Sequence record: NC_018855.1
DNA: 64,000 nucleotides
From: Escherichia phage HX01
Direction: 5' to 3' (one strand)
Part shown: positions 14,291 through 48,375 of the stretch, piece after piece
How positions within the stretch are numbered: the first letter of the stretch is position 1
How the letters are laid out: each line of letters begins with the position of its first letter
Program-made: the position numbers and the translations under genes
Notes under the pieces: generated by a model
Seen by the model: the letters and a program-made list of their open reading frames with translations, nothing else
What the model was told of the DNA's origin: nothing
The model's database searches: none

Positions 14291-15616
14291 ATGCAATTGA
14301 ATTCTCGTAATCTAAAAAGTATTATTGATAACGAAGCCTTAGCATATGCGATGTACACCGTTGAAAACCGTGCAATCCCAAACATGATTGATGGATTTAA
14401 GCCGGTTCAACGTTTTGTGGTTCATCGTGCGTTAGATTTGGCTCGTGGTAATAAAGAAAAATTTCATAAACTTGCGTCAATTGCAGGAGGTGTTGCAGAT
14501 TTAGGTTATCATCATGGCGAATCTTCTGCACAAGATGCAGGTGCATTGATGGCTAACACATGGAACAACAACTATCCGTTGTTAGATGGCCAAGGCAACT
14601 TTGGTTCTCGAACAGTCCAAAAAGCTGCAGCATCTCGTTATATTTTTGCTCGTGTAAGTAAAAATTTCTATAACGTATATAAAGATACTGAATATGCTCC
14701 AGCTCATGAAGATAAAGAACACATTCCGCCAAAATTCTATCTTCCTATTATTCCGACAGTTCTTTTGAATGGCGTCTCTGGTATTGCAACCGGTTACGCA
14801 ACAAATATTCTGCCTCATAGTTTTAAATCAGTCAAAAAGGCTGTATTACAAGCTCTTCAAGGTAAAAATGTCACTAAGCCAAAAGTTGAATTCCCGGAAT
14901 TCCGTGGTGAAGTACATGAAGTTGATGGGCGTTATGAGATTCACGGAACATATAAGTTCACATCTCGCACTCAAATGCAGATAACTGAAATCCCATATAA
15001 ATTCGACCGTGAAACGTATGTGAGTAAGGTTCTTGACCCGTTGGAAGACAAAGGTCTAATCTCATGGGAAGATGATTGTGGTGAACACGGCTTTGGGTTT
15101 AAGGTGAAGTTCCGTAAAGAGTACTCGCTTCCTGATGATGAAGAGCTACGTCATGAAAAAATCATGAAAGATTTTAGTCTCATCGAACGTCGTTCACAAA
15201 ACATCACAGTGATTAATGAAAAGGGTAAATTAGCAGTCTACGATAACGTAGTGGACTTAATCAAAGATTTTGTTGAAGTCCGTAAGACTTACGTTCAGAA
15301 ACGTATTGACAACAAAATCCTTGAATCTGAAAAAGCGTTTAAACTTGCTTTTGCTAAGGCACACTTCATCAAAAAAGTTATTACAGGTGAAATTGTGATT
15401 CAGGGCAAGACTCGTAAAGCTTTGACTGAAGAGCTAGCACAAATCGAAATGTATAAAGAACATGTCGATAAACTGGTAGGTCTTAACATCTTCCATATCA
15501 CTTCCGACGAAGCACGTAAACTAGCAGAAGAAGCTAAAGCTAAGAAAGAAGAAAATGAGTATTGGAAGTCTACCGATGTTGTGACAGAGTACACTAAAGA
15601 CTTGGAGGCACTTTGA
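14291..15616 (+). CDS. 52: DNA topoisomerase II medium subunit (GyrA-like)
   Basis: 441 aa; N-terminal region ...AIPNMIDGFKPVQRFVVHRA is GyrA/ParC-like and matches T4 gp52. Confidence 0.92.
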   Translation: MQLNSRNLKSIIDNEALAYAMYTVENRAIPNMIDGFKPVQRFVVHRALDLARGNKEKFHKLASIAGGVADLGYHHGESSAQDAGALMANTWNNNYPLLDGQGNFGSRTVQKAAASRYIFARVSKNFYNVYKDTEYAPAHEDKEHIPPKFYLPIIPTVLLNGVSGIATGYATNILPHSFKSVKKAVLQALQGKNVTKPKVEFPEFRGEVHEVDGRYEIHGTYKFTSRTQMQITEIPYKFDRETYVSKVLDPLEDKGLISWEDDCGEHGFGFKVKFRKEYSLPDDEELRHEKIMKDFSLIERRSQNITVINEKGKLAVYDNVVDLIKDFVEVRKTYVQKRIDNKILESEKAFKLAFAKAHFIKKVITGEIVIQGKTRKALTEELAQIEMYKEHVDKLVGLNIFHITSDEARKLAEEAKAKKEENEYWKSTDVVTEYTKDLEAL

Positions 15617-15692
15617 GTGCCCTAGCCTTAGGATTTCTCGGTGCAATAGCTGCACTAGTGATTTGGCTGTATTGGTTGGACAAACATGATTA

Positions 15693-15713
15693 GGGAGCTT
15701 CGGCTCCCTTTTG
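15693..15713 (+). terminator. Intrinsic terminator after gene 52
   Basis: GGGAGCTTCGGCTCCC plus TTTT. Confidence 0.75.
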
Positions 15714-15733
15714 TGCATTTTTCTCACAAAACA

Positions 15734-15762
15734 GTTTACATGTGCTTCAAACATGATATTAT
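15734..15762 (+). promoter_or_regulatory. Early-type promoter (GTTTAC-17-TATTAT) with MotA-box-like GCTTCA
   Basis: Part of a repeated promoter-leader module. Confidence 0.55.
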
Positions 15763-15801
15763 AGACCTATCAAAACAAAACAACCAAATTGGAGAAATAA
15801 A

Positions 15802-16017
15802 ATGTCTAAAATGAAATTAACCCAAAACACAACTACTCGTTTTGGTAAAGTTAAACCTGGTATGAATGCTCCCCGTAAAGCACTTGTTGAAGAATTAAAT
15901 TTCTTAGAAGTTGAAATCAATTCTTTAGTGGTTCGCGGTTCAAATGGACATCGTTTAGAAAAGCTTCGTTCTAAAAAGGCAAAACTTATTGGCCTTATTA
16001 AAGAAATGAGTTTGTAA
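15802..16017 (+). CDS. Hypothetical basic protein
   Basis: 71 aa; driven by a copy of the motA promoter-leader module. Confidence 0.5.
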   Translation: MSKMKLTQNTTTRFGKVKPGMNAPRKALVEELNFLEVEINSLVVRGSNGHRLEKLRSKKAKLIGLIKEMSL

Positions 16018-16055
16018 ATTTTACCAGGGCTTTTGGAAAAAGAGCCCAAAATAAA

Positions 16056-16084
16056 GTTTACTTTTGCTTCAAACATGATATTAT
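16056..16084 (+). promoter_or_regulatory. motA promoter (GTTTAC-17-TATTAT)
   Basis: Second copy of the module; 38 nt upstream of motA ATG. Confidence 0.6.
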
Positions 16085-16121
16085 AGACCTATCAAAACAA
16101 ATACTAATTTGGAGAAATAAA

Positions 16122-16754
16122 ATGTCTAAAGTTACTTATATCATCAAAGCTTCTGAAAACGCTCTGAATGAAAAAACTGCTGCAATAATGGTTTATATCA
16201 TTAAGAACAACTTCACCACTGCTGCCAATGTCCGTGAAGCTCTGGAAGCGGAATACAATGCATCGGTTGTTAACTCTAACATTGGTGTATTGATTAAGAA
16301 AGGTTTAGTCGAAAAATCTGGTGATGGACTTATAGCAACAGGCGAAGCAATGGATATTATCCAAAAAGCTGCAGACCTCTTTGCCCAAGAAAATGCTCCA
16401 GAACTTCTTCAGAAACGTAACACTAGAAAAGCACGTGGAGTTACTCCTGAAATGCATGAATTAGCAAACTTTGTTTTTGAAAATATTAAAGATAAAGTTG
16501 AAGTTAAAGAAATTGGTGAAAACCGTAGTAACTTGGAAGTTCGATTTGCAAAACGAGTTCTAGGTATTCGTCAGATCGAAATTCGTCGAAATGGTTCTCT
16601 TAGAATCTTTGCATACAACATGTCAGAAACCGAATCAAAGCTGTTTACTTCTCTTGAAAATGATGTTAAGATTAAGATCGGTGGTAAATATACTTACATT
16701 GACTTCCCTAATGTGTCCAAAGAAATCATTACCCTTGTAACTAACGTACTGTGA
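16122..16754 (+). CDS. motA: Middle transcription activator MotA
   Basis: 210 aa; MSKVTYIIKAS...NSNIGVLIKKGLVEKSGDGLI matches T4 MotA (211 aa) from memory. Confidence 0.92.
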   Translation: MSKVTYIIKASENALNEKTAAIMVYIIKNNFTTAANVREALEAEYNASVVNSNIGVLIKKGLVEKSGDGLIATGEAMDIIQKAADLFAQENAPELLQKRNTRKARGVTPEMHELANFVFENIKDKVEVKEIGENRSNLEVRFAKRVLGIRQIEIRRNGSLRIFAYNMSETESKLFTSLENDVKIKIGGKYTYIDFPNVSKEIITLVTNVL

Positions 16755-47496: not shown

Positions 47497-47525
47497 GTTT
47501 ACTCTCCTGTAGGATGTGTTACTAT
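47497..47525 (+). promoter_or_regulatory. Early-type promoter (GTTTAC-17-TACTAT)
   Basis: GTTTACTCTCCTGTAGGATGTGTTACTAT. Confidence 0.5.
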
Positions 47526-47566
47526 AGACTTGTACCACCTAATCAATAAAACAATCGGAGAATAAA

Positions 47567-47935
47567 ATGAAAATCAATCTGAACTCATACATCAAATGTA
47601 AAGACCACGACGGTTATAAAGCTATCGAAATTAAAGAATTCCAGTGGATGTTATACAAAGAGCAATTTGAGTTCGTAGGTTGTATGACCCCTGAAGGTCC
47701 TTCAGATGATTTCTCTTGGAAAATTGTGCTAGCAAACTTTTTCACAGGTGACACATATGAATTAAAAACTATTATTACCGGTAAAATTCGTTCAGAAACA
47801 TATGTTGACGAAGAAACTGGTTACTCTGAAGATGTTACATGGTATCAAAATGGACGCATTACAGCAGATAACCTGATCGAAAAAATGAAAGCCAAAGGTG
47901 TTTTAAATTTAGACAATTGGATTAAAGTTGCATAA
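47567..47935 (+). CDS. Hypothetical protein
   Basis: 122 aa; promoter 47497-47525; RBS GGAGAA. Confidence 0.55.
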   Translation: MKINLNSYIKCKDHDGYKAIEIKEFQWMLYKEQFEFVGCMTPEGPSDDFSWKIVLANFFTGDTYELKTIITGKIRSETYVDEETGYSEDVTWYQNGRITADNLIEKMKAKGVLNLDNWIKVA

Positions 47936-47939
47936 AACA

Positions 47940-47969
47940 GTTTACTTTGGTACAGGTTATGTTATTATA
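47940..47969 (+). promoter_or_regulatory. Early-type promoter (GTTTAC-18-TATTAT) inside a 9-bp perfect inverted repeat
   Basis: GGTACAGGT (47949-47957) and ACCTGTACC (47971-47979) flank the -10. Confidence 0.55.
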
Positions 47970-48009
47970 GACCTGTACCAACAAACAACTTAAACATCTG
48001 GAGAATAAA

Positions 48010-48375
48010 ATGAACTACACCAACTTCGAACGCAAATATGTTTCTAACGGTATCGCTGGTTCTATCGATATGGTTTGTTTGTGGAAGCATAAAAATGGTT
48101 CAGTATGTGAAATTGAGCAGTGCATGACTCCTAATTATGTTTATATGCGATTTGAAAATGGCATCACGGTTTCAATCACGACGGAAGGTTCAAATTTTAA
48201 AATTGCATTAGATGATGATTTCCGTCAGCGTGATTTAGGTACTCATCCTTGCTGGAACGGCGTTAATCGTAAACTTCTGGTTAAAACTTGGATTCGTCAT
48301 ATCCTGAGTAACCGAGCTAAACCTGAACATCTCGAAGCAATCTTTGATGTAGTTCTTAACGAATTCGATATCTAA
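48010..48375 (+). CDS. Hypothetical protein
   Basis: 121 aa; promoter 47940-47969; RBS GGAGAA; followed by GC hairpin. Confidence 0.55.
   Translation: MNYTNFERKYVSNGIAGSIDMVCLWKHKNGSVCEIEQCMTPNYVYMRFENGITVSITTEGSNFKIALDDDFRQRDLGTHPCWNGVNRKLLVKTWIRHILSNRAKPEHLEAIFDVVLNEFDI

Follow-up and report, generated by a model that had tools for sequence, protein, structure and literature searches.

Why should a T4-type phage carry nearly the same promoter, leader, ribosome binding site (RBS) and first codons twice, within a few hundred nucleotides, ahead of the gene for its middle-transcription activator, motA? The case considered is that of Escherichia phage HX01 (NC_018855.1), of which a stretch of 64 kb, one strand, was analyzed (the window, to which all positions refer). 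It is an RB69-like T4-type phage of the genus Mosigvirus, with PNJ-6 and ST0 as its top matches (99.4% identity). The first copy of the duplicated module stands before a 71-codon open reading frame (ORF), here named ORF71, and the second before motA. It is probable, from comparison of many related genomes, that a one-gene module has been inserted in the slot between gene 52 and motA with the copies as its boundary cassettes, i.e. that they act as recombination joints, and that recombination between them removes or adds ORF71.

A repeat search pairs 15725-15779 with 16047-16101 (55 nt, 91% identical) and 15774-15810 with 16094-16130 (37 nt, 84% identical), the repeat period being 320-322 nt. 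Included in these are an exact 36-mer, GCTTCAAACATGATATTATAGACCTATCAAAACAAA, that forms the promoter core, and an exact 22-mer, TTGGAGAAATAAAATGTCTAAA, that holds the RBS together with ATG-TCT-AAA (positions in Table 1); each has only its two matches in the 64 kb even when 3 mismatches are allowed, with a chance expectation of approximately zero. The initial annotation, made from the letters of the window, had described a duplicated promoter-leader-start module with a basic 71-codon ORF following one copy and motA the other, and with promoter, RBS context and a Met-Ser-Lys start in common; its coordinates and sequences, the order of the two genes and the shared blocks are all borne out. That the copies might be no more alike than unrelated promoters is contradicted by a comparison, in all 78 pairs, of the 13 early-promoter modules of the GTTTAC..TAnnAT type in the window. 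Copies 1 and 2 are the best pair, 85% identical over 87 nt (z=5.9), with a mean of 59% (standard deviation 4.5, maximum 74%) for the remaining promoter pairs, and their longest exact run is 37 nt versus at most 18 in other pairs. This comparison, with shuffles, rules out chance or the shared early-promoter consensus as the source of the likeness.

Both copies are scored by a promoter scan as sigma-70-type with a TG-extended -10 (TTTACA-16-TATTAT and TTTACT-16-TATTAT), and their A-rich upstream stretches are CACAAAACA and CAAAATAAA. They differ at two of the four spacer bases after GTTTAC, ATGT in copy 1 versus TTTT in copy 2, and in the stretch of 7-9 nt between core and RBS, which reads ACAACCAAA in copy 1 (the ‘type 1’ leader) and TACTAAT in copy 2 (‘type 2’), with a 2-nt difference in length.

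Mosigviruses with and without ORF71

Approximately 154 Mosigvirus-level records are available for comparison; 74 carry the whole region and some 80 match both flanks at 96-98% identity but are 320 bp shorter, the ORF-less genomes being shorter by exactly one repeat period (320-322 bp). Fourteen Mosigvirus loci were retrieved for junction analysis. From an anchor on the terminator side, 5′ of copy 1, to the motA start there are 412-415 nt in ORF-plus genomes versus 91-95 nt in ORF-less genomes, and the single promoter of each of the latter is a chimera of both copies, with two classes of junction. Class A, as in RB69 and pEK20, has the copy-1 5′ flank and, beyond the core, the type 2 leader (AAATACTAATTTGGAG), which puts its crossover in the 36-nt core. 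With class B (VIPECOMC06, SSE1, F2, KAW3E185, mar005P1), the copy-1 promoter and type 1 leader (AAAACAACC[A/G]AATTGGAG) run into motA at codon 4; here the crossover is inside the 22-nt RBS/ATG-TCT-AAA block. A 74-nt query across the class-B junction matches 92 records at ≥95% identity, and class B is therefore the common ORF-less allele. As the junctions read, the class-B crossover is in frame, with a predicted intact motA that gains the promoter and leader of ORF71.

An especially close pair is that of APCEc01 (ORF-plus) and mar005P1 (ORF-less), which belong to the same ICTV species and are nearest neighbors on both flanks, with 0.6% and 1.5% divergence. Both carry the rare copy-1 variants GATAGTATAAACC, and what separates the two is precisely the 320-bp cassette; the switch falls entirely within the 22-mer. 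The two states are found together within single ICTV species and, in neighbor-joining trees of both flanks for 12 genomes, ORF-plus and ORF-less genomes are interleaved, the Fitch minimum being 4 (upstream) or 5 (downstream) changes. With about half of the genus lacking it, ORF71 is dispensable. The proposal in the initial annotation that the duplication had ‘captured a new ORF’ was right in spirit; that the repeats, as recombination joints, make ORF71 an optional, shufflable cassette had not been seen.

The mechanism envisaged starts from cassettes that each consist of a stem-loop, a T4-type sigma-70 early promoter, a short leader, a Shine-Dalgarno (SD) sequence of GGAG with A-rich sequence, and a start codon, an architecture known as the promoter-early stem-loop (PeSL) and dealt with below. 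Both promoters would fire immediately after infection, the ORF71 product being made together with MotA. T4-type replication and recombination would act on the short homologies between the direct repeats, which would be homogenized by gene conversion, in Mosigvirus to an extent that reaches through the motA RBS and first three codons into ORF71. Recombination between the repeats would excise the 320-322 bp ORF71 cassette or, in the reverse reaction, re-insert it; excision would leave a single chimeric promoter ahead of motA. Two crossover zones are in natural use, one in the 36-nt core of the promoter and the other in the 22-nt block of RBS and ATG-TCT-AAA. On this scheme the exchanges would be by-products of a T4-type recombination/replication machinery that needs only short homology (PMC2839356, PMC9391042). 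Short-homology recombination in T4 yields deletions and amplifications (Srikant et al. 2022, PMC9391042; see also Singer et al. 1982 and Wu et al. 1991, as cited in PMC9391042 and PMC2839356), and there too direct repeats of tens of bp or fewer suffice to delete or amplify the segment between them. However, the laboratory events occurred at arbitrary micro-homologies, whereas the repeats here are functional regulatory cassettes and the alleles are natural and fixed.

Age of ORF71 and the probable concerted evolution of the copies

ORF71 was detected by tblastn in 92 phage records, only in Mosigvirus (approximately 75, at ≥90% identity) and in the Dhakavirus/JS98 group (17, at 72-77%), and in every locus examined it is between gene 52 and motA. 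A search of 5.8 billion proteins yielded just 8 ORF71 clusters, all of 51-71 amino acids and none outside Mosigvirus and Dhakavirus; the only two with a source name, one of them from Escherichia phage C6, are each called ‘hypothetical protein’. The IMG/VR search for ORF71 gave JS98 and VR5 only. In the deposited records of ATK47, ATK48 and JN02, ORF71 is intact (97% identical by tblastn) and unannotated.

Between Mosigvirus and Dhakavirus, the ratio of nonsynonymous to synonymous divergence (dN/dS) of ORF71 is 0.15-0.21, with dS 1.2-1.6 and dN 0.24-0.27; the motA values are dS 0.9-1.1 and dN 0.24-0.25. Judged by these values ORF71 is under purifying selection and is a real gene, and, being as diverged as motA (dS>1), it has been at the locus at least since the two genera split. 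An AlphaFold2 model of the protein (predicted local distance difference test score, pLDDT, 77) has a disordered basic N-terminal tail and a helical hairpin with helices at residues 23-44 and 50-70. A Foldseek search of the model against the PDB gave no match below E=0.6, and a Pfam search of ORF71 gave no match.

In Dhakavirus the same two promoters flank ORF71 and have genus-specific bases, GCTTT and ATACTATAG, in both copies; the Mosigvirus counterparts, again in both copies, are GCTTC and ATATTATAG. On a finer scale, VR5 has a private A in both of its copies, and JS98 has C at the same position in both. Over a 31-nt core, paralogues are identical at 31/31 positions in six of eight genomes, and orthologues from different genera at 29/31. 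Such core identity within a genome, combined with shared genus-specific variants, is a pattern that indicates gene conversion, and concerted evolution (gene conversion), together with constraint on the promoter, best accounts for copies that are nearly identical; their likeness would reflect ongoing homogenization and not recent duplication.

The shared start codons have a history of their own. In Dhakavirus, ORF71 starts ATG AAT AAG (MNK) behind GGAGATACAAAA, and motA starts ATG TCT AAA behind GGAGATTAAA. In T4, Marfa, Dhakavirus and Mosigvirus alike, motA starts with ATG TCT AAA. With the MNK start of Dhakavirus ORF71 and a motA start that is the same throughout, the 22-mer of the window is best read as the motA initiation block copied onto ORF71 in Mosigvirus. 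This conversion would have created the second, in-frame crossover zone, the one now behind most ORF-less alleles. A separate observation on the same region is that in distant Serratia and Erwinia phages the first ~30 nt of motA coding sequence and the end of the RBS (ATAAAATGTCTAAAGTTACTTACATCATCAAAGCTT) are 100% identical, with motA overall far more diverged, which suggests constraint at the nucleotide level on the motA translation-initiation region.

Both junction classes coexist and ORF71 is old, as judged from its Dhakavirus orthology, and so at least one of the classes is a secondary deletion. Certain points weigh against the boundary-cassette reading or limit it. As the exchange is reversible, deletion and insertion cannot be told apart in a given pair of ORF-plus and ORF-less genomes. 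Few sites (2-3) are diagnostic for gene conversion, and part of the identity of the copies is due to strong purifying selection on the promoter. For the hairpin at 16027-16047 the shuffle control for covariation is weak (45/500), since the stem varies little, and, with no U-tract, a role for that hairpin in termination or attenuation is only putative. A 5-bp stem in the copy-1 spacer, CATGT..ACATG, was considered and dropped, its fold being no better than that of shuffles (z=-0.6); all four combinations of its arms (T/A, C/A, T/G, C/G) occur among relatives.

Alternative accounts and predicted expression

Could the likeness be purely functional, with selection for identical expression and no recombination between copies? 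T4-type early promoters do have long consensus stretches, TATAGACCTATCAA and GGAGAAUAAAAUG recur at other early genes of the window, and the motA promoter core is kept even in Klebsiella phage Marfa. Selection alone would nevertheless not yield lineage-specific substitutions that are present in both copies of one genome, nor ORF-less genomes that have chimeric promoters with two crossover zones and are one repeat period shorter, and this account is considered unlikely. Even less probable, to the point of being hardly tenable, is a tandem duplication of the motA promoter and start that occurred recently in the lineage of this phage and was followed by capture or creation of an ORF. Near-identical copies with exact blocks of 36 and 22 nt, and with the first three codons also in common, are what a recent duplication would give, and the initial annotation had raised it. 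Dhakavirus, however, has the two promoters and ORF71 (72-77% protein identity) with synonymous sites saturated and with divergence like that of motA; a recent transfer of ORF71 between the genera is contradicted by the dS above 1; and, the Dhakavirus ORF71 RBS and start being unlike those of motA, the identity of the 22-mer would be a later, Mosigvirus-specific homogenization. A recent duplication is thereby ruled out by the Dhakavirus orthologues and dS.

A third account invokes regulatory design, i.e. tandem early promoters that raise motA dosage and a motif, TTTTGCTTCA, through which MotA would act back on the promoters of its own gene and of ORF71. The motif, in the spacer of the motA early promoter and 7 nt from the -10, is a perfect MotA box (WWWTGCTTYA; Table 1), and TGCTTCA is also in copy 1 (15743-15749). 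It is kept as TGCTT[C/T]A in Mosigvirus, Dhakavirus and Marfa, though not in all lineages, and a spacer box is present in 0/11 of the other early promoters of the window list (in the window as a whole the MotA-box motif is over-represented, with 21 matches versus 5.9 expected). The promoter and terminator scan revealed no canonical terminator between ORF71 and motA. What makes such a design improbable is that about half of Mosigviruses have a single promoter only, that several lineages read CCGCTTTA, AGCATTA or an unrelated spacer where the box would be, that T4 is without a box in this orientation, and that MotA alone binds DNA weakly (PMC2988021). Nor is the box part of a middle promoter. 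With (a/t)(a/t)(a/t)TGCTT(t/c)A at 12 ± 1 bp upstream of a TAnnnT -10 as the test, there is no TAnnnT 11-13 nt 3′ of the box, TATTAT being only 7 nt away, and the repeat as a MotA-dependent middle promoter is ruled out on spacing. One could still imagine the spacer box to be an operator by which MotA, possibly with AsiA-modified RNA polymerase, shuts off its own gene, ORF71 being brought into the same negative feedback by its duplicated promoter, kept alike by conversion. With the box replaced in several lineages, this is speculation of low probability; were it true, part of the shut-off of T4-type early promoters, so far unexplained, would have a concrete cis element assigned to it.

Under the boundary-cassette reading, expression of the two genes is expected to be similar. 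Co-regulation of ORF71 and motA, which the initial annotation had also put forward, is plausible from the shared promoter, leader, SD and start. The consensus of early promoters is established for T4 and RB69 (PMC2988021, PMC1524935), and RB69 has early promoters ahead of novel ORFs (PMC1524935). By analogy with T4 biology, both promoters would be immediate-early and sigma-70-dependent, with ORF71 co-expressed with MotA. As no canonical terminator separates the two genes and the hairpin at 16027-16047 is without a U-tract, copy-1 transcripts may also read into motA. The SD of T4 motA is cleaved by RegB (PMC2988021, PMC1702504), whose site, with S1, has as its consensus the 11-nt single-stranded GGAGRAYARAA (Durand et al. 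2006, PMC1702504). Both copies have GGAG 9 nt ahead of the ATG and read GGAGAAAUAAA, a 9/11 match to that consensus, in which positions 7 and 8 are off because there is one A more than in GGAGAAUAAAA; folding predicts no structure there. The regB gene itself is outside the window. Both mRNAs would then carry the same GGAG and A-rich SD, putatively of the RegB-sensitive type as in T4 motA.

The gene 52-motA slot and promoter-early stem-loop cassettes

Table 1. Features of the gene 52-motA region in the window, in order of position
Feature	Position	Strand	Evidence or remark
Gene 52 (topoisomerase II medium subunit), upstream conserved flank	14291-15616	+	Pfam DNA_topoisoIV 8e-78; PHROG 551; annotated gp52 in RB69 and ATK47
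Small hydrophobic ORF of 26 codons, TTG start (uncertain), overlapping the gene 52 stop	15613-15693	+	Read from the sequence
Stop just 5′ of the first cassette (small ORF)	15691-15693	+	
Terminator-type hairpin AGGGAGC-UUCG-GCUCCCU, then UUU; stem-loop of copy 1	15692-15713 (hairpin 15692-15709)	+	Fold -12.9 kcal/mol, z=-2.7
Copy 1 of the module, with A-rich upstream part	15725-15810	+	Repeat search, promoter scan
Copy 1, -35 TTTACA	15735-15740	+	Promoter scan
Copy 1, exact core	15744-15779	+	36-mer
Copy 1, -10 TATTAT	15757-15762	+	Promoter scan
Copy 1, type 1 leader ACAACCAAA		+	
Copy 1, RBS/RegB-like GGAGAAAUAAA and ATG TCT AAA	15789-15810	+	22-mer
ORF71, basic protein of 71 amino acids, isoelectric point (pI) 10.6; optional cassette gene	15802-16017	+	PHROG 6200 (function unknown) 1.6e-39
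Stop just 5′ of the second cassette (ORF71)	16015-16017	+	
Conserved hairpin GGGCUUUU-GGAAA-AAGAGCCC, stem-loop of the motA cassette	16027-16047	+	Fold -12.2 kcal/mol, z=-2.9
Copy 2 of the module, motA early promoter	16047-16130	+	Repeat search, promoter scan
Copy 2, -35 TTTACT	16057-16062	+	Promoter scan
Copy 2, MotA-box-like TTTTGCTTCA	16062-16071	+	
Copy 2, exact core	16066-16101	+	36-mer
Copy 2, -10 TATTAT	16079-16084	+	Promoter scan
Copy 2, type 2 leader TACTAAT		+	
Copy 2, RBS/start block	16109-16130	+	22-mer
motA, middle-transcription activator	16122-16754	+	Pfam MotA_activ PF09114 1.1e-39, MotCF PF09158 4.6e-9; PHROG 1345

The assignment of motA is from its N-terminal activation domain (PF09114) and C-terminal double-wing DNA-binding domain (PF09158), both of which score past their cut-offs. 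The order of features has a counterpart in T4, where there is one early promoter and no ORF between motA.1 and motA; the 26-codon ORF is in the T4 motA.1 position, and Dhakavirus and pEK20 have 34-codon ORFs in the same place. T4 and the window share a GTTTAC-type early promoter that follows the terminator of gene 52/motA.1, an SD with GGAG and A-rich sequence, and the ATG TCT AAA start of motA; they differ in that T4 has neither the second promoter nor ORF71, and in their spacer and leader sequences.

The hairpin ahead of copy 1 bears the annotation of a rho-independent terminator in the ATK47 and KAW3E185 records and, being of terminator type by sequence and by this annotation of relatives, can be taken to end the gene 52 transcription unit; its absence from the + strand output of the terminator scan is due to the short T run. 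The hairpin ahead of copy 2 is directly 5′ of the A-rich/-35 portion of that copy. All eight of its pairs are kept in 8 lineages, one pair being AU:5/GC:2/GU:1 and another CG:6/UG:2, and it moves with the promoter behind different upstream ORFs. It is not an intrinsic terminator by the usual signs, as no U-tract is present (AAAAUAAAG follows), and the scan lists it on neither strand. No known RNA family was found at E≤1 in an Rfam search of the leader and hairpins.

A wider view of the slot comes from 32 IMG/VR loci that encode MotA relatives, together with Klebsiella phage Marfa. Before motA, GTTTACTT[T/C]TGCTT[C/T]AAAC[A/G]TG.TATTATAGACCTATCAAA recurs across genera whose coding DNA is only ~70-78% identical; this conservation shows copy 2 to be the ancestral motA early promoter, with copy 1 its paralogue, which drives ORF71. 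The hairpin and promoter unit, ACCAGAGCTCTTGAAAAAGAGCTCAAAATAAAGTTTAC.., is constant while the ORF ahead of it changes. Elsewhere the slot is empty or contains ORF71, a 30-codon membrane ORF (Marfa), or unrelated ORFs of 58, 73, 75, 87-89, 96, 101, 124 and 215-223 codons, with at least eight unrelated ORFs occupying it in other T4-like phages, and by this diversity it is a shuffling hot spot.

Two of the occupants show the cassette at work with other genes. In one locus (L029), a 73-codon ORF (MKTLNINSFF...), approximately 364 to 75 nt upstream of the motA start, is right behind the promoter, leader and RBS of ORF71 itself, directly after the ATG, and the -35 region of the motA promoter is replaced by unrelated sequence. 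In three T4-like loci (L049-L051) and one Dhakavirus-like locus (L041), the same 75-codon ORF (MKFKIENEIV...) is present approximately 330 to 100 nt upstream of the motA start. In the T4-like three, the ORF now has the 5′ half of the T4 motA promoter as its driver, and the promoter ahead of the T4-type motA is of Dhakavirus type, which amounts to transfer of a cassette between genera.

These features are those of a known phenomenon. In T4-type phages, PeSLs have been described as ‘mobile regulatory cassettes’ (Arbiol et al. 2010, PMC2839356; Comeau et al. 2014, PMC4122927), with ORFans flanked by two PeSLs, chimeric PeSLs after excision, a terminator or attenuator role for the stem-loop, and mini-circles, from PeSL x PeSL exchange, as proposed intermediates (PMC2839356). 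All of the sequence-level features of PeSLs are found here: a promoter with A/T-rich sequence upstream, a stem-loop (the two hairpins, one before each copy), an SD and start with an upstream stop, and presence or absence of the ORFan. The likeness is close, with stem-loop, A-rich region, sigma-70-type early promoter, SD and downstream start codon in each cassette, an ORFan between the two, one chimeric cassette in close relatives without the ORFan, and re-use of the cassette before unrelated ORFs. The predicted promoters of both copies also fit, at the level of consensus, the TTTACW..TAYWAT of the T4/PST-type PeSL promoter (TTTACW-N17-TAYWAT; PMC4122927).

There are also differences. The described cases are in RB49/phi1, PST/T4 and nt-1/KVP40, and neither motA nor RB69 is mentioned in PMC2839356 or PMC4122927, which makes the motA locus a new example. 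The pair in the window is directly ahead of a core regulator gene, its copies resemble each other far more closely than those of typical PeSL pairs do, one of its crossover zones is inside the translation-initiation block and includes three codons, and the copies show concerted evolution across two genera. The locus is a clear further example of the PeSL shuffling already described, and the known picture of PeSLs is unchanged by it. The additions are modest: a crossover zone with an RBS and three codons, evidence that the two cassettes are homogenized across two genera, and a large set of natural alleles in both states. As a clean natural example of small accessory genes being gained, lost and exchanged by T4-type phages while the essential regulators next to them stay undisturbed, it has the merit that the exchanged unit is bounded by portable promoter-leader-RBS cassettes and that both states of the exchange are in public genomes. 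From a practical perspective, the slot upstream of motA looks like a natural, well-tolerated insertion site for the engineering of RB69-like phages.

Some observations concern individual genomes at this locus. The gene 52 terminator hairpin (15694-15709) is GGGAGC-TTCG-GCTCCC in the window, ATK47 and others, and GGGAGC-CGAA-GCTCCC in RB69 (approximately 1805-1820 of the locus). The RB69 form is the exact reverse complement of that in the window and so the hairpin, or its loop, has flipped between close relatives. In pEK20, classed as Mosigvirus, the gene 52 3′ end, small membrane ORF and terminator are of Dhakavirus type (1200-1440 of the locus), with the upstream flank 9.5% diverged from other Mosigviruses, and the sequence turns Mosigvirus-type at the terminator T-run, just before the motA promoter; by this mosaic pEK20 is a recombinant between genera, joined at the terminator/promoter cassette. 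The record of F2 (NC_054913) gives its taxonomy as Tequatrovirus, but the locus is 98% identical to Mosigvirus and has the RB69-type gene order, and the record is probably misclassified.

Elsewhere in the window there is a second unusually similar pair of early promoters, 47497-47575 and 47940-48018, which are 443 nt apart, 74% identical and second-best of the 78 pairs. Both modules end in GGAGAATAAAATGAA and they flank a 122-codon ORF (47567-47935), with a 121-codon ORF following; a further cassette of this type may be present here. A short inverted repeat between the -35 and -10, or across the -10, is apparent by eye only in the early promoters at 1253, 2771, 39230, 40413, 41819, 43945, 47940 and 54856, examples being AACCA-AGGA-TGGTT, CCACAA-GGA-TTGTGG, ACACA-TGGA-TGTGT and GGTACAGG..CCTGTACC. 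An inverted repeat in the promoter spacer or -10 is the arrangement that has been described as the commonest PeSL subclass.

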